A stretch of 64,000 nucleotides of DNA, taken from the NCBI GenBank assembly GCA_963791045.1, contig CAWBQK010000006.1:320001-384000 (forward strand), written 5' to 3'. The position numbers were made by a program, and so were the translations under genes. This stretch comes from Candidatus Latescibacterota bacterium (lineage in GTDB: Bacteria; Krumholzibacteriota; Krumholzibacteriia; WVZY01). The notes beneath the pieces were generated by a model. It was not told the origin of the DNA, made no database searches, and saw only the letters and a program-made list of their open reading frames with translations. This document shows, one piece after another, positions 21,454-42,481 of this stretch; the stretch's first letter is position 1, and the number at the start of each line of letters is the position of its first letter.

Positions 21454-24400
21454 TTGCGACATCGCCGCCCGGACAAGCTCTTTTCGCATCGCCCCCTCTT
21501 GTTCCTTGTTCTCGCTGTATTTGTTTATCTCCCCAGCGCCGTTCTTTCACAAAATGAATCCACGGACAGCAGTCCGCCGCCCCCAACCCGCCGCGACAGC
21601 GTATTTCGATACGATGCGGGAACGACTTCAATAAGAGAAATAAACGGGGAAACGGTTCTCGAGGGAAGGGAAGGCGTCAGAATCATCCACGGGGATGTAA
21701 CCATCACCGCGGACCGCGGGCTGCATTACAGGGGGCGCCAGCTCACCTATTTTATTGGCAACGTCAATATCGATCAGGACGAAATGCACATGCAGGGGGA
21801 TGAGGGTGAGTACCGGCGAGCCGATGACATCGCCATCCTCAGGAACCATGTGCAAATTCGCGACCGGGGGCTCGAGATTGATTGTGACGAGGCGACCTTC
21901 CACAGGACGACCGAACGCGCCTGGCTCAAAGGGAATGTAGTGGTCGTAGATTCGGCCACGACGCTTACCGCCGACAGCCTCTACTACGACAAGGCAAATC
22001 TCGTTTCCGAGGCGTTCGGCAACGTGGAGATCATCGATCGCAAAGAGGGAATCCGGCTGACGGGACGGCATGGTTTTTATTACCGGGAAACCGGCGTGGG
22101 AATCATGGACCAGCTCCCCCGGCTCACAGTGGATCCCGACAGCAAGGAACCCACGACGGTCGACAGCGATACGATGTTGTTTTACCCCGACAAGAGAATG
22201 GCCGTTGCCCACGGCCGAGTGAAGATCCTCAAAGGCGGGACGGTCACGCAGTGCGATTCCGCCGTCGTTCTCGATGACCTGCAGCGGGCGGAACTCTACG
22301 GGAACCCCCTCGCCAAACAGGGCAACGTGTCGATGCAGGGCGACAAGCTGGTTATGGGTTATGACGAAGATCAGGTCAACCAGATCGATATCATCGGCAA
22401 GGCGACAATAAAGGAGACGCCCAAGGACTCGCTGGTGATAGACAGGGACAGCTGGGTGCGCGGCGATTCCATGGTGCTATATATGCGTGAAAACAGACTC
22501 GATTCGATGAGCGTGTCCGGGTCTGCGGAAAGCGAGTACTACCCGGCGAGCGTCGACCGTGTCGAGGCGAACTACGCTCGCGGTGACAGTATGTTCTTCA
22601 CCTTCAAAAACGACTCGCTGGACCACGTGTGGATAATCGGTAAGGCCGACGGCGCCTATCGATATGTGAGACTCGCGCCGAACGAGACGGCCGATTCGCT
22701 CCGCGCCGCGCGGGACACGTCGTACACGTATATCCCATTTGTCGAGAATGCGGAGCGGGTTGTATATGCGGCGGATACCATTCAGTATTTTTCGAAGCAG
22801 CATGATCTGGTTTTGAACAGCAAGGCAAAGGTCGACTATCGTGGCAAGACGCTTCTCGGCGACAATATTACCTACTCGGCCGATCTCGAACTTCTCGACG
22901 CGACGGGGTCCCCGGTCCTGATAGAAGGTGTCGATAAGCTATACGGAGACCGGATGGACTATGACATGGATCTGGGGACGGGACTCGTCCAGGAAGGGGC
23001 GACCCAGTTCATGGACGGATTTTATGACGGCCGTCGAATCGCCAAAGTGGGGGACAATATTCTCAAAGTGTGGGATTCGAAATATACCACGTGCGATCTC
23101 AAGATTCCGCACTATCATTTTACAAGCAACAGGATGAAGGTGTATCTCGACGACAAGGTCGTTTCGGGTCCGATCGTTCTCTACATAGGCGAAACTCCGA
23201 TCATAGCTCTTCCGTTTTTTGCGCAGAACATCCGCCGCGGTCGGCGTTCGGGGATCTTGAGACCGACTTTTGAGTTCGGGGTGAACTCCAACAAGGACAG
23301 GTTTATTCGAAATATCGGTTATTACTGGGCCACTAACGACTATACCGATTTCACTTTCATCTCCGACTTCAATGAGAATCGCTCGGTGAGGTTCCGGATC
23401 GATAACCGCTACAAACTCAGATATGCCTTCAACGGCGGGTTTAATTTCTCGTGGTTCCGGGATCTCCAGGAGTATCGCAACGAGTGGACATTCCAGGGGC
23501 GGCACGATCAAACCCTCGGCGAGAAGGCGTCTTTTAACGCGAACTTGAGATTTGTCAGCAGCGACCGGGCGCCAAAGGATGTCAGCCGAATCGACGAGGT
23601 CGCCGATGTGATCGACCGCCGCATCGAATCAACGGCGAGTCTTCGCAAGACCTGGAGCGCATTTGGTTTCAGCGCGTCGGGCAGGCGAACCCAGCTTCTC
23701 GACGTTCCCGACACAACGACCGTTCGCGTGAGCACGACACTTCCGAGCATCGCGCTGTCCGTCCCCGCTATCACGCTCTACTGGGGAGAAAAGAGAAAAG
23801 CGGGATTCGAGACGATTTGGCAGAAGGTTTTCGACAAGGTCAGGATATCGCCGGGCATTTCGGGCAACCGCAAAGTTGACGAAAAAGCGTACGAATGGAG
23901 AGAGGTTATCACCGCGAACGCCTCGCTCGGCGCGACCGCGCCCTTCAAGCTGGGTTTCCTGAACCTGACACCCCGGATATCGGCGAGCGACGCGTACAAC
24001 CGCACAACGATCGATCGCTGGTCGCATGAAGTTGATGTCGATGATTCGACGGTGGTTATCGTCAAGGGTGATGGTCCCGTCACCGAGTCGGACAACGTGT
24101 TCAGCTGGAATGCGGGAGCCGGGGCCACCACCAATTTCTTCGGGACCTTCTATCCTCGTGTGGGGGCCCTGCGCGGTCTTCGCCATACGATGACGCCGTC
24201 GGTGAGCTATACCTACACTCCGCCGCGCGCAAGCCGGTCGGCGAATCAGAGGTTCAATGTGAGCCTCAAGAATGTCATCGATCTGAAAATACTAAGCAGC
24301 AAGCAGGTTGATGAAGGCGACTACGACCCCGAGGGAGGGAGTTCTTCGCTTGCCGAGAGGGCCGATCACAAGGAGCTGAGGAGGGGTGATGTGGAGACGG

Positions 24401-25131
24401 AAAGCGACGAGAATGCTCCTAAGTCCGCCGAGGAAGAACAGGAGGAAGCGGAGGAGCTCAAAAAGCTCTCAGGCGTCTTCATTTGGACGCTGAGTTCTTC
24501 CTACGACCCGGCGAAGGTATTCAACCAGGGATGGTCGAATATCAGCAGTTTGATGAATCTCAAAGTGCTGGGAACGAGTCTCTCGATAACCCAGTCGATA
24601 GATCCCTTCGATTTCAATATTCTGTCGACACGGTTGTCGACATCGTTCCAGTTCCGCGGGCACCACCCGTTCGGGTCGGCGGTGGCGACAAAGCGTGAAC
24701 TCAACATCGTCGCCGCGGACACGACGGAGGCCGTGGGGCTCGATGTGGGCGGCGAGCCCGAAGCGGAGGAAGAAGAGGACAAGGGGCTTCCGTGGAACGT
24801 CGGGCTCGGATTTAGCTATTCGAAAGCGGATGGGTTCGACGAACCGAGTTCGACGCTTAATCTCAACGGCGGAATCTCGCTGACACACGGGTGGCGGCTT
24901 TCGTACAGGACGAATTATGACGTCGTCGACCGCGACTTCCTTGGAGAGTATTTCAGTGTTGCGCGAAATTTGCATTGCTGGCAGATTTCGTTTTCCCGAC
25001 AGAAACTCGGTGACGAATGGGAATTTTATTTCAAGATCAGCATCACGTCGCTTCCCGAACTCTATGCCGAACAGGGCAGCCGCGGTTTGGGCAGCGGTAA
25101 TAGCACTTTTGGTTCTCCTTTGGATTATTGA
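21454..25131 (+). CDS. lptD: LPS-assembly protein LptD with a long N-terminal OstA/LptA-like repeat extension
   Basis: Signal peptide; repeated ADSL.Y / A.GNV beta-jellyroll-type units; YTTCDLKIPHY, RRSGIL, GYYWA, RNLHCWQ. Confidence 0.85.
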   Translation: MRHRRPDKLFSHRPLLFLVLAVFVYLPSAVLSQNESTDSSPPPPTRRDSVFRYDAGTTSIREINGETVLEGREGVRIIHGDVTITADRGLHYRGRQLTYFIGNVNIDQDEMHMQGDEGEYRRADDIAILRNHVQIRDRGLEIDCDEATFHRTTERAWLKGNVVVVDSATTLTADSLYYDKANLVSEAFGNVEIIDRKEGIRLTGRHGFYYRETGVGIMDQLPRLTVDPDSKEPTTVDSDTMLFYPDKRMAVAHGRVKILKGGTVTQCDSAVVLDDLQRAELYGNPLAKQGNVSMQGDKLVMGYDEDQVNQIDIIGKATIKETPKDSLVIDRDSWVRGDSMVLYMRENRLDSMSVSGSAESEYYPASVDRVEANYARGDSMFFTFKNDSLDHVWIIGKADGAYRYVRLAPNETADSLRAARDTSYTYIPFVENAERVVYAADTIQYFSKQHDLVLNSKAKVDYRGKTLLGDNITYSADLELLDATGSPVLIEGVDKLYGDRMDYDMDLGTGLVQEGATQFMDGFYDGRRIAKVGDNILKVWDSKYTTCDLKIPHYHFTSNRMKVYLDDKVVSGPIVLYIGETPIIALPFFAQNIRRGRRSGILRPTFEFGVNSNKDRFIRNIGYYWATNDYTDFTFISDFNENRSVRFRIDNRYKLRYAFNGGFNFSWFRDLQEYRNEWTFQGRHDQTLGEKASFNANLRFVSSDRAPKDVSRIDEVADVIDRRIESTASLRKTWSAFGFSASGRRTQLLDVPDTTTVRVSTTLPSIALSVPAITLYWGEKRKAGFETIWQKVFDKVRISPGISGNRKVDEKAYEWREVITANASLGATAPFKLGFLNLTPRISASDAYNRTTIDRWSHEVDVDDSTVVIVKGDGPVTESDNVFSWNAGAGATTNFFGTFYPRVGALRGLRHTMTPSVSYTYTPPRASRSANQRFNVSLKNVIDLKILSSKQVDEGDYDPEGGSSSLAERADHKELRRGDVETESDENAPKSAEEEQEEAEELKKLSGVFIWTLSSSYDPAKVFNQGWSNISSLMNLKVLGTSLSITQSIDPFDFNILSTRLSTSFQFRGHHPFGSAVATKRELNIVAADTTEAVGLDVGGEPEAEEEEDKGLPWNVGLGFSYSKADGFDEPSSTLNLNGGISLTHGWRLSYRTNYDVVDRDFLGEYFSVARNLHCWQISFSRQKLGDEWEFYFKISITSLPELYAEQGSRGLGSGNSTFGSPLDY

Positions 25132-25278: not shown

Positions 25279-25572
25279 GTGAACAAAACTCAGCTAGTAG
25301 AGAAGGTCGCCAACAGAACTGGTATGACACTTAAGGACTCAAAAATCGTAGTCGATGCGATTTTCAGCACGGTCCCGAAGGAGGGTATTATAGCCTCTGA
25401 GTTGAATGCGGGTCGTAAGGTCCAGATTACGGGTTTTGGCACTTTCCAGATTCGGAAAAGGAAAAAGAGAGAAGGCAGAAATCCCCAGACGGGTGAGCCG
25501 ATCATGATTCCTGCATCTCGTTTTCCGTCTTTTTCGGCTGGTAGGGCTCTGAAAGATCGAATCCGCAAGTAA
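25279..25572 (+). CDS. hup: HU family DNA-binding protein
   Basis: MNKTQL, GFGTF, GRNPQTGE, PSFSAGRALK; RBS AAGGAGGT. Confidence 0.95.
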   Translation: MNKTQLVEKVANRTGMTLKDSKIVVDAIFSTVPKEGIIASELNAGRKVQITGFGTFQIRKRKKREGRNPQTGEPIMIPASRFPSFSAGRALKDRIRK

Positions 25573-25600
25573 GGATTTACTGCTTGCCGGATAGTTTACA

Positions 25601-25627
25601 AGCGGGGCTTCGAGCCCCGCTTTTTTT
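25601..25627 (+). terminator. Rho-independent terminator after hup
   Basis: GCGGGGC-TTCGA-GCCCCGC followed by T7. Confidence 0.85.
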
Positions 25628-25664
25628 GTGTCCGTTTGGATCGGAGTCCCACCTTGCAGCGGTC

Positions 25665-25693: not shown

Positions 25694-25741
25694 TACTGGA
25701 GACTCAATCAGACGAACGCCGCTGAATTCGAGGAGAGCGAT

Positions 25742-27145
25742 TTGAAAATCATCACGATCATCGTTCTGTGTGCAGCCGTGCTGGCCGGTATGTCCCCACC
25801 GTCCTCGTCCGAGGATGTGGGTATGAACACGATCCAGCTGGTCTACCACAGCGATACGCGCGGGTACTATCTGCCCTGTGGCTGAAACACCAGCGCGGCG
25901 GGCGGTCTGGCCCGCAGAGCAAGTCTCTTGGCCGAATACCGGTCGGGGGGGCTCCCGCTTCTCCTTGTGTCGGGCGGCGATGTTTATGGTGGAAACGACG
26001 CCTACAACAGGCCTAAGTGCAGTTTTCTGGCGCGCATGATGGCACGGTTGGGTTACGACGCGGTGGCGCTTGGAGAGAAAGATCTCAATTTCGGCCTGGA
26101 TGCCATCGTCGAAGACGATGAGACGTTCGGGCTCAACGTTATCTGCGCCAATCTTTTCCCAAAGAAGACGTCCGGGGATGGTGCCGCTGAAATGGCTGGG
26201 TCCGGCGTATCCCCCGTTTTTCCGGCGTATAAGATTGTCGAGCGTGGTGGGGTTCAATTTGGTGTGGTGGCCGTGCTTTCGCCGGCGGCAAAGAACGAAC
26301 GGATCGCGGCTGAAAAAGGCGAAGTCGAAACACTCAACTATATAATCAAAAACCCGATTCCCGTGTTGGCCGAAATCATTCCCGAAGTCGAGTCCCAGTC
26401 CGATGTCGTCGTGCTCGTCGCTCACATGAGAAAATCCGAACTCGATCAAATCTTTGAATCGGTGTCCGGGATCGACATGGTCATCCTCGGTCACAGCGCG
26501 AAGGCGCAGGTGACGCCCGAGCCGACTATCATCCGTGAGATTCCCGTTTATATGGCGAGCCACCAGGGCCAGTATATAGGTCGCGCGTTGTTGTCGTTCG
26601 ATTCAGCCAACCGGCTTGTTGAGACGGTCAACGAAGTCAAGCTTCTCGACAGCAGCGTTCCCGATGATCCCGAAATGAAAATTCTCCTGACCGAATTCGA
26701 AAAAGAAAACAGGAAAATCCAAAAGGAACTATTCGTTCGCGAGCAGCTACAGGCCAAAACAGGGAAGGCGGCGGTCCAGGATGTTTACCTCGGCATCGCC
26801 AACTGTCAGGAGTGTCACGCCGATGCCTTCGATTCTTACCTTGGTACGATGCACGCCAGGGCCTACTCGACGCTCTCCGAAGCGTTCATGCACAGAGACT
26901 CCGGGTGTGTGCCGTGTCATTCGACGGGCTATGGATTGAGGGGTGGGTTCGACGGCGTCCGCGTGCCGGGAAGCATGGTTGATCTGGTCGATGTTCAGTG
27001 TGAGGCCTGCCATGGGCCCGGCGCCGCACACTCGCGTGACGGTCGCTATCGAACCACTGCGCGGGAAAGTTGTATAAGATGTCACACGGAAGAACAAGAT
27101 CCTGACTTTGATTTCGAAAAGGCATGGGAAAAAATTGCTCACTAA
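25742..27145 (+). CDS. Exported UshA-like selenoprotein (CxU) fused to tetraheme cytochrome c (c554-like); TGA 25883-25885 read as Sec
   Basis: ORFs 25628-25885 and 25928-27145 share a frame; read-through gives signal peptide, HSDTRGYYLPCG-U-NTSAAGGLARRA, degenerate 5'-nucleotidase fold and CQECH, CVPCH, CEACH, CIRCH; RBS GAGGAG; selD in window. Confidence 0.85.
25898..25915 (+). promoter_or_regulatory. Putative bacterial SECIS element
   Basis: Stem GCGGGC/GCCCGC with GGTCTG loop at +13..+30 after TGA. Confidence 0.65.
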
Positions 27146-27926
27146 GGTTTGCCTAATTATTGTCTGCGTTCTCTCGGTGTTCGCACCGCCGGTTTTATCG
27201 CAGACAAGTGATTCATTTCTTATCCCCGGCGCGGACTTCTCGCAACTCGTCCTCGAAGCGGGTGGATGGTGTCGGTATCTTGTTGTCGATGAAGCACTTG
27301 GACAGGCTGACTCAACCGAGGTTTATATTGGAATCCCGGGGAGCGAAATCACCGAGCGGGGACGAGCGTATTGGGTCGAACTTGTGTCGACGCCGCTCCC
27401 GGCGGTTTCCGGTGGTGGCGAAGTTATCAAACTACTTGTCCTGGAGCAAATCACGGAATTTTCTGATGGAGATTCTCTTGGTCAATACGTGCTCAAACTC
27501 TATATTAAAAAAGGCGCCCAACCTATCGAAGAAAAGGATCCGGAAAGTTACGAGGACTTTTCTCTTATAGTGCCCACCGCTGAAGCGTTGTGGGAGTCCT
27601 CCCCGGGAACAGAAGTTTCCACGAAGGGAGGTGCTTTTAACTGTACGAAAAAAACGCGCAGCGCTCAGAGTAACCAGGAAATCCCCACCGGCAAAATCAA
27701 GCTGATCAAGAAATCACGGGATGATTACACCGTCTGGTTTTGCAACGACGTTCCAGTTTTCCGTTTGGTCAAATGCGTAATCGAGCGTTCCAGAGAGACC
27801 GATACGGTTCCACGAATTGCCGGGATCCCCGTTTCGGGGCCCAAATACTCGAGAACGGAAGCTGAGTTGACCGCGTTTGGCGATGACGCCACGCCAATCC
27901 TCGGAACCGGTGACTCGACCCGGTGA
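27135..27926 (+). CDS. Secreted hypothetical protein
   Basis: Signal-peptide-like N-terminus (LTKVCLIIVCVLSVFAPPVLS), 263 aa, overlaps upstream stop. Confidence 0.7.
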   Translation: MLTKVCLIIVCVLSVFAPPVLSQTSDSFLIPGADFSQLVLEAGGWCRYLVVDEALGQADSTEVYIGIPGSEITERGRAYWVELVSTPLPAVSGGGEVIKLLVLEQITEFSDGDSLGQYVLKLYIKKGAQPIEEKDPESYEDFSLIVPTAEALWESSPGTEVSTKGGAFNCTKKTRSAQSNQEIPTGKIKLIKKSRDDYTVWFCNDVPVFRLVKCVIERSRETDTVPRIAGIPVSGPKYSRTEAELTAFGDDATPILGTGDSTR

Positions 27927-27949
27927 TCCGCACAAAGGAGGATGGCCCG

Positions 27950-30307
27950 ATGAGATACCCCTGGGGATTCATAGCTGTCTGCCTGGTGACAATCGCAGTC
28001 CTGGCACCGACCACCCCCCTTTCCGCTTTTACCCATTCCGAGACTCCCTCTCTCGTTGCCGTCGGTGAGACACCGAGCATTTCGGCTGAACGTTATTACG
28101 TTAATGCGCAGGCGGTCGATGAGTTGGAGTTGATTGCACTTCGCAAAGCACTCATCGAAAACGGCGCGCAGAAGGTGAATCTTTTTCTCCCCCAGAAAAT
28201 AATTGTCTGTGACGTGCCTGAGACCATGGATTTGGGGCGTTTCATCACGGACCCGCGAGTTTCATTCTTCGAGGAAGCCCAGGTCGGTCCGCGGCTGATC
28301 GCGGACAACGGCGGCGGTCTGGATTTCGTGAAGATGTGCTACGACCGGTTGCAGCGGCAATCTGCGGCCGGTGTGAACCACGATTTCAACGATGTCGTGG
28401 TGAGGTCCAGGCCGGAGGATATCGAGGCGTCAAAACACAAAATGACGATGTCTCCCGTGTCAGGCATGGTCGAGGAAAGGACCATCGAACAAAACTCGGA
28501 GTTTCTGGTTGGAGATATACTTGTTCAGCTCGTTTTTCCCGAGAGTGCGGGCAGTGCGGAAAACTGGACGGACGAGGTCATTGCCGATGCCGCATCGGGG
28601 GCGTTTGCCGCCGTGATGGATTTCCAGGCGCAGTTCGGTTTTGCTCCGATTCATTATGTGCTGAGGAGTGAATCGAAGGTGCCCACGACCTACGAGCCGA
28701 TTCGTACGGAGATGGACGAGCATGTCGAGTGGATCTATGAAGTCATGACAAACCTCGGAATCACGGCCGGCAGGTCGGCTGAACTGATGGTGCATGATTT
28801 CAACAACTTCTTCAGGCGATACTACGCGACCGACTGGGCGTTCACCGCGTTTATCGCGAACAGCGAGAACGCTCCGAACCACAGGTTCGCCGATCAGTTT
28901 TACACCGCATACGCGACGCTCGGCGGTCCCTATCTTGTGATACCATTTCCCGCGGGCGAGAATCCAAACGATATCGATCCCTGGCTCGTTTACTCCACAG
29001 TTTTTCAGCACGAGATGGGTCACGTTTTTTGGGCGCTCGATGAGTATCCTGCGGAGATCAACTTGTCCACGTGCTCCTCCCGTACAGGGTATCTCAATTA
29101 CGCGAACGGCAACAAGGTCACGCAGCTTCTCGATGGCACTTACGGACACTGTCCGGGAGTGGAAACCGAAGTCTGCATTATGTGGCTTGCCAAGGAGGAC
29201 CACGGCCGACCGGTCTGCCCATTCACGGAGGGGCAGCTCGGGATCATTGATTTTAACAAGAACAATATCCCCGATGTGTTCGATGCGGCCCCAATGGTTG
29301 AGTTCGAAGGCGCGGCGGTTGAAACCGTCCAGGCTCCCGATCTGACGATCAATATGAAGGCGATTGCGGGCGCCGTGCAAAATATTAACCCGCTCCAGGA
29401 TCCCGATGCCCGGCGAAGCTACGCGCCGCCGCTCAAGGACGCCGTGCTCACAGTCGACGGGATCGGCAATGTTCGGCTCTCGCCACAGGATGGCAGGTGG
29501 GACGAGACGGAGGAGGATCTGTCGATCACAATCAAGGGGATTAAGGTTGGGTTGACGGAAGTTGGCCTGACTGTCAGGAACTCGTTCGGGAAATCGTCCG
29601 CCGAGATCATCAAGAAGATTTATTTCGCCGGAATTAATTTCGCGTTGTTCGATGCCAAACCGAGATCCGACGGCATCGAGGTGAAGTGGAGCACCGTGGG
29701 CGAGACTTTTGGCGCGCGTTTGGATCTCTACAGGATCGACACGTCTTTCGGCGCGCCCGATACCACACTTCTCGCGGGAGATGTCCAGCCCAATCCGCAC
29801 TCTGGCGGCGCTTTCAATCAGTATGCGTATATGGACAAGGATATCCGTCCCGGCTACGACTACAGGTATTTCGTCGAAGGTTACTTCGAATTTGTTTACA
29901 ACGATACGACGATCGAGTACAACCCGGTTTCCGGCACGTTCGGGGCGCAGAGCATGTTCCCGATACCGTCCGGACAGCTGTCGTCTTACGTGTCGCCGAA
30001 CCCGTTCAACCACGTTACGAAGATATCGGTTCGTGTCCCCAACACGTATGCGGCACCTGTCGGAGACAACCCGAACGCGACGAATGGAGTATCCCAACCG
30101 CAGCAGTCGGATGTGGAAGTCACCGTGTTCGATGTTCAAGGCAAAAGGGTCAAACGGATATTCAAGGGAAGCATGTATGGGGGAGTGAGGAACTTCGAAT
30201 GGGACGGAACAAATGAGAACAACATCGCGGTTACATCGGGTGTCTACTTTGTTAAGACTAACGCTGGGCCCGCCGCCGAGGTTAGAAAGATAGTTCTGGT
30301 TCGGTAA
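27950..30307 (+). CDS. Secreted zinc metallopeptidase with C-terminal FlgD-Ig/T9SS-type sorting domain
   Basis: Signal peptide, FQHEMGHVFWALDEY, CIM turn, PNPFN...WDGTNE...SGVYF...RKIVLVR; RBS AAAGGAGG. Confidence 0.85.
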   Translation: MRYPWGFIAVCLVTIAVLAPTTPLSAFTHSETPSLVAVGETPSISAERYYVNAQAVDELELIALRKALIENGAQKVNLFLPQKIIVCDVPETMDLGRFITDPRVSFFEEAQVGPRLIADNGGGLDFVKMCYDRLQRQSAAGVNHDFNDVVVRSRPEDIEASKHKMTMSPVSGMVEERTIEQNSEFLVGDILVQLVFPESAGSAENWTDEVIADAASGAFAAVMDFQAQFGFAPIHYVLRSESKVPTTYEPIRTEMDEHVEWIYEVMTNLGITAGRSAELMVHDFNNFFRRYYATDWAFTAFIANSENAPNHRFADQFYTAYATLGGPYLVIPFPAGENPNDIDPWLVYSTVFQHEMGHVFWALDEYPAEINLSTCSSRTGYLNYANGNKVTQLLDGTYGHCPGVETEVCIMWLAKEDHGRPVCPFTEGQLGIIDFNKNNIPDVFDAAPMVEFEGAAVETVQAPDLTINMKAIAGAVQNINPLQDPDARRSYAPPLKDAVLTVDGIGNVRLSPQDGRWDETEEDLSITIKGIKVGLTEVGLTVRNSFGKSSAEIIKKIYFAGINFALFDAKPRSDGIEVKWSTVGETFGARLDLYRIDTSFGAPDTTLLAGDVQPNPHSGGAFNQYAYMDKDIRPGYDYRYFVEGYFEFVYNDTTIEYNPVSGTFGAQSMFPIPSGQLSSYVSPNPFNHVTKISVRVPNTYAAPVGDNPNATNGVSQPQQSDVEVTVFDVQGKRVKRIFKGSMYGGVRNFEWDGTNENNIAVTSGVYFVKTNAGPAAEVRKIVLVR

Positions 30308-41434: not shown

Positions 41435-42481
41435 ATGACTGATGGAAAAAAGATAAGACTGACGCAGTACGCGTCGTGCGCCGGCTGAGCGGCCAAGTTC
41501 AGCGCGGCGGGTCTGCGCGATATACTCAAACACGTGCCGCCGTCGATCGACCCCAATCTTCTCGTGGGGTTTGGTGCGGCGGACGATGCAGGTGTGTACC
41601 GTCTCGACGATGATACGGCACTCGTGGTTACGGTCGACTTCTTTACCCCCATTGTTGATGACCCTTTTGATTTTGGCAGGATCGCCGCAGTGAACTCCTT
41701 GAGCGACGTCTACGCGATGGGTGGAGAGCCTCTCGTTGCGCTCAACGTCGCGGCTTTTCCCGAGGGGAAATTCCCTCCCACCGTTCTTGCCGATATTCTC
41801 AAAGGCGGCGCGGCCGGCGCGCTCGCGGCGGGGGTCGTGATTGCCGGGGGCCATACCGTGGCCGACGAGGAACTCAAATACGGTTTGTCGGTTGTCGGCA
41901 AGATTCACCCCGACCGCGTGATCCGCAACGACGGCGCTCGCCCCGGTGACGATCTCGTGCTGACGAAACCTCTGGGCACGGGTGTGCTTTCAACGCGTCA
42001 CAGGGCGGGGCAACTCGACGAGCCTGGATACGGCGTTCTCGTCAATTCAATGGCGATGCTCAATAAGCAGGCATCGGAACTAATGCGGGATTTCGACGCG
42101 CATGCGTCGACGGACATCACGGGGTACGGATTTCTGGGGCACACATTCGAGATGGCTGAAGGCAGTGGTGTCACGATCGAGATTCTTGCCGAAGCGATTC
42201 CCACACTGCCCGGCGCGATTGATGCCGCCAGGGATGGTTTCCTGACCGGTGGTGGGGGAACCAATCGAATTTTTGTGGCGGATCGTCTTAAATGGAAAAC
42301 CCCCTCGGATGAGATTCTGGAGCACATCCTCTTTGATCCCCAGACCTCCGGCGGACTGCTGATCGCAATCCCTCATGAAAAGAGCGCGCGCTTCTTGAAG
42401 GAACTCGAGCTCGTTTGTCCCCACGCCGCAATCGTTGGGCGTGTCACGAATCGCCAGGATACGCCGCTCGTGGTTGTTTGA
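41435..42481 (+). CDS. selD: Selenide, water dikinase SelD, Sec-containing (TGA 41486-41488)
   Basis: MTDGKKIRLTQYASCAG-U-AAK in frame with DDAGVY, TVDFFTP, NSLSDVYAMGG, GGHT, LTKPLGTG, DITGYG, DPQTSGGL. Confidence 0.96.
41502..41518 (+). promoter_or_regulatory. Putative bacterial SECIS element of selD
   Basis: GCGCGG/CTGCGC stem with CGGGT loop at +14..+30 after TGA; contains GGTCTG. Confidence 0.6.

Follow-up and report, generated by a model that had tools for sequence, protein, structure and literature searches.

The UshA-like gene considered here lies on the + strand of the window (the whole stretch of DNA that was analyzed, 64,000 nt), in a run of genes ordered LptD (21454-25131), HU (25279-25572, PF00216), the probable selenoprotein, an exported protein and a 794-aa protein. 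The hup (HU) gene is followed by a strong intrinsic terminator (25600-25632, +), with a 10-pair stem at 25600-25622, seven of its pairs G-C, and then a T run; this lies just upstream of the UshA-like gene, which therefore opens a new transcription unit. Its frame extends over 25742-27145 (+), from a TTG start to a TAA stop, and direct reading of the sequence finds a Shine-Dalgarno-like GAGGAGAG (25730-25737, +) 4 nt ahead of the TTG. When the one in-frame TGA is read as U the frame gives 467 residues, with U48 as the lone read-through codon in the context ...HSDTRGYYLPCG-U-NTSAAGGLARRA. Under translation table 11 the same frame is two ORFs, a short one that stops at 25885 and one of 405 aa that starts at TTG 25928.

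The read-through protein begins with a putative signal peptide region (residues 1-27, 25742-25822, +), hydrophobic from I3 to G16; AlphaFold models residues 2-15 as a helix at low confidence, and relatives likewise begin with a hydrophobic stretch. A 5'-nucleotidase-type metallophosphatase-fold domain with a decayed two-metal site follows (residues about 29-330, 25826-26731, +), and near its start the motif reads L-P45-C46-G47-U48, then NTSAAGGLARRA; the C46-G47-U48 codons occupy 25877-25885 (+), the TGA at 25883-25885 being the presumed Sec codon. The C-terminal part is a cytochrome c554-like tetrahaem domain (residues about 340-467, 26759-27142, +; PF13435, PDB 1bvb), whose four CxxCH motifs are C355/C358/H359, C389/C392/H393, C420/C423/H424 and C444/C447/H448, encoded on the + strand at 26804-26818, 26906-26920, 26999-27013 and 27071-27085. 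The first-pass annotation had described an exported read-through protein of 467 aa with C46-G-U48 and four CxxCH motifs, and this is what the frame holds. We consider it highly probable that 25742-27145 (+) is one gene, and that its product is a selenoprotein of the UshA-like CxU ('PCGU') family that is exported.

The position of the TGA is one at which relatives carry Sec or Cys. Cys stands at the U48 column in 15/15 full-length database relatives, with C46 kept in at least 90%. Within the same order, 28 ortholog-level matches from other genomes (44-61% identity) comprise 24 with exactly one in-frame TGA and four without, and among 19 orthologous loci fetched from that order TGA occupies the U48 column in 18 and TGC in the remaining one (L075). 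Of 30 loci fetched across the phylum with the NF041198 model, 17 have TGA and 13 a Cys codon at this column; it is also spanned by 20 metagenome loci, several of them duplicate contigs, with TGA in 15 and TGC in 5. The residues that flank U48 are conserved (PCG-U-...GGLARRA). Conservation was scored in an alignment of 35 haem-bearing relatives, in which the U48 column has U in 33 and C in two: P45 is identical in 32 of them, and C46, G47 and U/C48 are each 35/35. Thus homologues do carry Cys or Sec where the initial reading of the locus had said they should, and because the in-frame TGA recurs at the same column in 18/19 orthologous loci, it is not there by chance.

In public databases, the gene calls for this protein and for those nearest to it begin after the TGA and so lack both signal peptide and Cys/Sec motif: none of the best 33 database matches covers more than 87% of the query, and the identical public record (P0002, 369 aa) holds only the downstream part. 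Shortened calls of this kind are the usual fate of unrecognised selenoprotein genes. From these comparisons, together with the Sec machinery and the hairpin described next, we conclude that TGA 25883-25885 is very likely a selenocysteine codon and the product a selenoprotein.

The genome examined (3.66 Mb in 21 contigs, about 81% complete) has genes for selenocysteine insertion and for cytochrome c assembly. The presence of selA, selB and selC had been proposed as a check on the selenoprotein, and all were found by genome profile search or as RNA: selA at 460.5 bits, selB at 373.7 bits, and tRNA-Sec (selC, anticodon tca) at 66.1 bits, the last on a contig other than that of the window, in which ARAGORN found no tRNA. 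The selD gene (selenide, water dikinase) lies inside the window, as had been noted, at 41435-42481 (+); it scores 373 bits in the genome search, and 379 bits for TIGR00476 with TGA read through, and is itself in the Sec form, with TGA 41486-41488 in SCAG-U-AAK. For cytochrome c assembly, the genome has genes with PF01578, which is found twice.

A SECIS-like hairpin had been reported to follow the TGA, and a candidate of bacterial type is found at 25893-25920 (+), with a core stem 25898-25903/25910-25915, the loop GGUCUG at 25904-25909, and two outer pairs. The core, GCGGGC-GGUCUG-GCCCGC (25898-25915), is part of the lowest-energy structure computed for the 63 nt that begin at the TGA, a fold of ordinary energy for so G+C-rich a sequence (z = -1.1; 23 of 200 shuffles fold as well). 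Its apical loop starts 21 nt after the U of UGA, and both the register and the sequence of the loop match what we take to be those of the E. coli fdhF SECIS. The same hairpin recurs in the three closest orthologues (L060-L062), one G-C pair having become G-U in L060. The remaining orthologues have another hairpin, CUCGCCC-GGN-GGGCGAG, with compensated variants, which lies about 10 nt further downstream over the Ala-Arg-Arg-Ala codons. Because these designs differ, the alifold consensus over all Sec orthologues selects the downstream hairpin and not that of 25898-25915. The use of two distinct predicted SECIS hairpin designs among orthologues is a new detail. The whole 64,000-nt window gave no match to a curated SECIS or other RNA family in Rfam at gathering thresholds. 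On inspection, the GC-rich Ala-Arg-Arg-Ala codons give a small palindrome even in Cys-form L075, an observation that counts against a SECIS role.

The N-terminal domain belongs by sequence and by model to the 5'-nucleotidase fold. A profile of 53 relatives, compared with PDB sequences, matched 5'-nucleotidases at E 3e-32, UshA at 8e-22 and SoxB at 1.1e-17. The AlphaFold model (mean pLDDT 84.3, pTM 0.78) exceeds 90 over most of residues about 30-330 and is less confident in the CGU loop (79 for the block 41-50) and in the haem domain (52-81), which was built without haems; its best Foldseek matches are 3ive, CD73 and UshA (1ush, 2ush), with E about 1e-20 over about 320 aligned columns. A HMMER alignment to human CD73 sets DAGD against S77-G-G-D80, GNHE against G111-E-K-D114 and GHS against G250-H-S-A, and the central His corresponds to A-H228-M. 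The stretch D38-T-R40 precedes the start of that alignment and is equated with DxH by motif order. The altered nucleotidase metal motifs described at first sight (SGGD, GEKD and GHSA, and DTR on the footing just given) are therefore real features of the protein.

Among the 35 haem-bearing relatives, N137 is kept in all 35 and D114 in 34, followed by H228 (31), D38 and E112 (30 each), H251 (29) and D80 (27); R40 occurs in 20, and His at that position in just two. The only invariant residues of the N-domain in the wider family are C48, G54, G55, G79 and G118. The intact set of an active phosphatase (DxH, GD, GNH(E/D), H, GHxH) is absent, the D80 of GD and H228 being retained. Since the ligand positions are only partly kept while C-x-U/C is invariant, the two-metal site appears decayed and the Cys-x-Sec/Cys pair is the conserved feature. 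D38, D80, H228 and H251 are each kept in 77-89% of Sec-clade sequences. With these four ligand positions largely kept, and E112 a possible substitute for the Asn ligand, a residual metal site could persist.

The Pfam match is confined to the haem part of the protein (PF13435, E 3.4e-13, 50.8 bits against a threshold of 20.8), and in the PDB the relatives' profile matches cytochrome c554 (1bvb, E 4e-19). All four CxxCH motifs are invariant among the aligned haem-bearing relatives, as are three His beyond these motifs, H371, H430 and H467. Cytochrome c554 has three bis-His haems and one five-coordinate haem; by analogy, the three extra His would fit the same arrangement here. The fusion of a UshA-like CxU domain to four haems, as first proposed, is thus upheld from both ends of the protein, by the 5'-nucleotidase fold and by the four CxxCH motifs with PF13435.

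The start of the next gene overlaps the end of the selenoprotein gene. This partner (27135-27926, +; 263 aa if it starts at TTG 27135, 272 aa if at TTG 27108) is an exported protein of no known family: neither Pfam nor NCBIfam gives a match to it, and every one of its 64 homologues is labeled 'hypothetical'. After it comes the gene for the 794-aa protein (27923-30307, +), which ends in a sorting domain for type IX secretion (TIGR04183 at 26.3 bits, the cut-off being 23) and whose homologues sit downstream in relatives, forming the third gene of a conserved block. The partner directly follows in 18/19 of the order-level loci, the exception being a truncated locus. Its profile matches the next ORF in 14/14 class-level loci (E 1.6e-14 to 1.5e-3) and in 17/17 Sec-form phylum loci, ten of which share genomes with the class-level set; it matches in none of the 13 Cys-form phylum loci, 12 of which are without any CxxCH. 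When metagenomes were approached from the partner, 37 loci were found, and an UshA-like gene precedes it in 31 of the 33 with at least 275 nt upstream. One metagenome locus, L105, reads LptD-HU-partner-794aa without an UshA-like gene, and L106 is uninformative. We considered an obligatory coupling of selenoprotein and partner and set it aside, as L105 keeps the partner without the UshA-like gene. The linkage is strong but may be inherited synteny.

The partner is modeled with pLDDT 86.2 as an antiparallel beta structure. Compared with the LolA/RseB/MucB/YmcC-like group, it reaches a Foldseek TM of at most 0.39 and a best VIA-align Z of 9.8, where the usual background best is 7-8. From these model comparisons a LolA-like fold is a weak suggestion, to be taken as a lead only.

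The probable selenocysteine reading must be set against one in which the TGA really ends translation or is a defect, so that the locus is a pseudogene, or encodes a short exported peptide and, from TTG 25928, a separate 405-aa protein. Table 11 yields exactly these two ORFs, and the public calls annotate the downstream part only, as in the 369-aa P0002. Contigs from four sequencing runs, chosen among runs that each share 0.18 or less and include none of RNA, leave 25883-25885 uncovered. However, a stop or defect would have to recur as the same TGA in 18/19 orthologous loci (44-61% identity), the nineteenth having TGC, and conservation extends over both flanks of the codon, in a genome that holds the complete Sec machinery. 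The separate product would also be cut off from its cofactor: c-type cytochromes need a signal peptide to reach the periplasm for haem attachment, and a cytochrome without the upstream signal peptide would never arrive there. We regard the stop or defect as exceedingly improbable, and retain the selenocysteine codon in what follows.

Following the established bacterial Sec pathway, SelB with Sec-tRNA would bind the hairpin at 25898-25915 and insert Sec at U48; the signal peptide would then export the chain, and the haems would be attached in the periplasm. The old two-metal phosphoesterase site would no longer work. C46-G-U48 would lie in a loop right after the first metal motif, at the mouth of that old site, where Cys46 and Sec48 could serve as a selenenylsulfide/selenol centre, passing electrons to or from the four-haem chain. 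We find this mechanism, with a lost metal site and a C46/U48 selenenylsulfide/selenol couple wired to the haems, plausible but hold it tentatively. In the literature searched, we found no published activity or function for UshA-like CxU/NF041198 selenoproteins, and to judge by title and abstract none of the selenoprotein papers on Latescibacter is on the UshA-like family. Our best guess for the substrate is a sulfur or selenium species, because of the kinship with SoxB and the chemistry of Sec.

A metal could still take part. A single metal might be held by D80, E112, H228 and H251, which we take from 5'-nucleotidase structures to form one site (the old second site), with C46 and U48 replacing the lost His ligands; the haems would then feed a redox metal ligated by Cys/Sec. 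The CD73 alignment does put these residues at metal-ligand motifs, and of 35 relatives D80 is kept in 27, E112 in 30, H228 in 31 and H251 in 29, with D114 in 34 and N137 in 35. But true metal ligands are normally invariant, and each of these is swapped for Ala, Gly, Ser, Asn or Gln in 4-8 of the 35; distant Cys-form members lack the motifs altogether, yet retain C-x-C. Such a metal-selenolate enzyme seems to us unlikely, although worth keeping in mind. Far less probable is a phosphoesterase or SoxB-like hydrolase that is still active (a nucleotidase or thiosulfohydrolase), with an accessory haem domain and a structural role for Cys/Sec. The homology to 5'-nucleotidases is clear (E 3e-32), and that to SoxB weaker (E 1.1e-17; TIGR04486, E 1.9e-16). 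Yet in GNHE the catalytic His has become K113 and the Asn ligand E112, the position equated with the His of DxH is R40, with His in just 2/35, and where UshA has its C-terminal nucleotide-binding domain this protein has the cytochrome. An invariant site that uses Sec generally points to redox chemistry, which also argues against hydrolysis.

If the partner is included, one may envision, for this phylum, a conserved envelope module of a new kind for handling chalcogens: the tetrahaem Sec/Cys protein would perform the redox step, the co-translated LolA-like partner would perhaps be a carrier, its ligand being hydrophobic or insoluble (for instance elemental sulfur, elemental selenium or polysulfide), and the type IX-sorted protein would act at the surface. 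We think this extended scheme quite improbable as it stands. Whatever its substrate, the family joins a decayed phosphoesterase fold bearing an invariant Cys-x-Sec to a four-haem wire, and the substrate, once found, would add a new periplasmic redox enzyme.

The class to which the protein belongs is not new. The first-pass annotation had placed UshA-like CxU proteins in selenoproteome surveys, and such entries do exist: 'COG0737, UshA-like', with CxU, was a major selenoprotein family of the Global Ocean Sampling data, with 76 Sec sequences, and was mentioned in the discussion of that paper as a family lacking a classical redox motif (PMC2398784, 2008); 'UshA-like protein', CxU, appears in the table of a 2022 review (PMC9312934), and a table in a 2026 review equates UshA-like CxU with NF041198 (PMC13188914). 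The best NCBIfam match of our protein, with U read as C, is this same model, NF041198 UshA_like_PCGU, at 238.8 bits (E 1.1e-70), which is below the cut-off of 275 bits; in the genome search the two frame pieces score 104.3 and 124.7 bits. The PCGU/PCGC motif that we use as a family mark is taken from the model's name. Sec-form relatives of the same phylum, also situated behind LptD-HU, pass the cut-off (for example, 295.3 bits for that of genome G027). The locus is thus a somewhat divergent addition to a selenoprotein family catalogued since 2008. Since it scores below the NF041198 cut-off, automatic pipelines will keep miscalling the gene. The UshA-like family is widespread, and its haem-bearing Sec form occurs in many genomes of the phylum. 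What this study adds is the conserved exported partner downstream, the two predicted hairpin designs, and the partial retention of the former metal ligands.

Among known systems, NF041198 (an equivalog of 519 positions) is nearest: it shares P-C-G-U and spans N-domain and haem part alike, and differs in that the protein here has 467 aa and a score below its cut-off. Its positions 356-519 align to residues 301-459, in the haem part, which means that the fusion to haems is already a feature of the curated family. The COG0737 UshA-like CxU family has in common the 5'-nucleotidase homology and a CxU motif with Cys homologues at the Sec column; the survey passages on it mention neither a haem domain nor a function. 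NF049981, 'UshA-like (seleno)protein family 2', matches only residues 32-116 (E 6.8e-12, 45 bits against a cut-off of 140), and its motif is given in the review table as CxxU, not CxU (PMC13188914). E. coli UshA and CD73 share the fold and the GG(L/V)AR motif after the first strand; here, in contrast, the metal and catalytic motifs are altered, C-G-U is added, and the C-terminal substrate-binding domain has given way to a tetrahaem cytochrome. SoxB (TIGR04486; PDB 2wdc, 4uwq) is a distant metallophosphatase homolog (E 1.9e-16, 59 bits against a cut-off of 550), a periplasmic sulfur-cycle enzyme with an intact two-manganese site and without the CxU motif or haems. Cytochrome c554 of Nitrosomonas (1bvb) resembles the C-terminal domain in its four CxxCH motifs, and the three further invariant His found here would fit its haem ligation; it is a free electron carrier, whereas in the present protein the domain is fused to an enzyme-like module.

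Directly after the gene for the UshA-like tetrahaem selenoprotein, almost every relative examined within the phylum has the gene for an exported partner protein, encoded in the window at 27135-27926 (+). The partner matched no Pfam or NCBIfam family, and its predicted fold weakly resembles LolA/RseB; W45-C46-R47-Y48 and C214 are invariant across the window protein and its homologues (L060-L129). The end of the partner gene is overlapped by the start of the gene for a 794-aa protein (27923-30307, +), whose C-terminus bears a sorting domain for type IX secretion (TIGR04183, scoring barely above its cut-off), and in relatives the partner is likewise followed by homologues of this protein. One metagenome contig (L105, 1-5024) retains the block of LptD, HU, partner and 794-aa protein, with the UshA-like gene absent from the interval between HU and the partner.

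Cys forms of the UshA-like protein were also found. The best matches to NF041198, the NCBIfam model for UshA-like (seleno)proteins, in two further families of the phylum are Cys forms with S-C-G-C, in open frames of 329 to 790 aa, and none of these (L026, L028, L030, L032, L035, L037-L039, L043, L048, L051, L052) has a CxxCH motif; thus the Cys-x-Cys domain occurs without the cytochrome too. Many genomes of the order (contigs G177:C43, G196:C71 and others) encode a second, Cys-form tetrahaem paralogue with 30-36% identity, which exceeds the NF041198 cut-off and, in the one locus checked (L049), is not adjacent to the LolA-like partner; a search of the incomplete genome to which the window belongs did not recover this paralogue.

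The window also carries the Sec form of selD (41435-42481, +), in which reading through an in-frame TGA (41486-41488) gives SCAG-U-AAK; the table-11 ORF list holds only the portion from 41534 onward. Elsewhere in the genome, about 700 nt downstream of the adjoining tRNA-Sec gene (C18:158792-158887), an ORF (L015, G000:C18:159590-160189) contains one in-frame TGA and shows weak similarity (66 bits) to the GTPase part of the selB model; it may be a further selenoprotein or an unrelated GTPase.

Two distinct SECIS hairpin designs serve the one Sec codon of the UshA-like gene among the orthologous loci L060-L078, 15-45 nt past the TGA. The window and its three closest orthologues share a hairpin with an fdhF-like 6-nt loop, GGUCUG. 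In all the remaining orthologues a CUCGCCC/GGGCGAG stem is capped by a GGN loop of 3 nt, and this hairpin is positioned ~10 nt further downstream.
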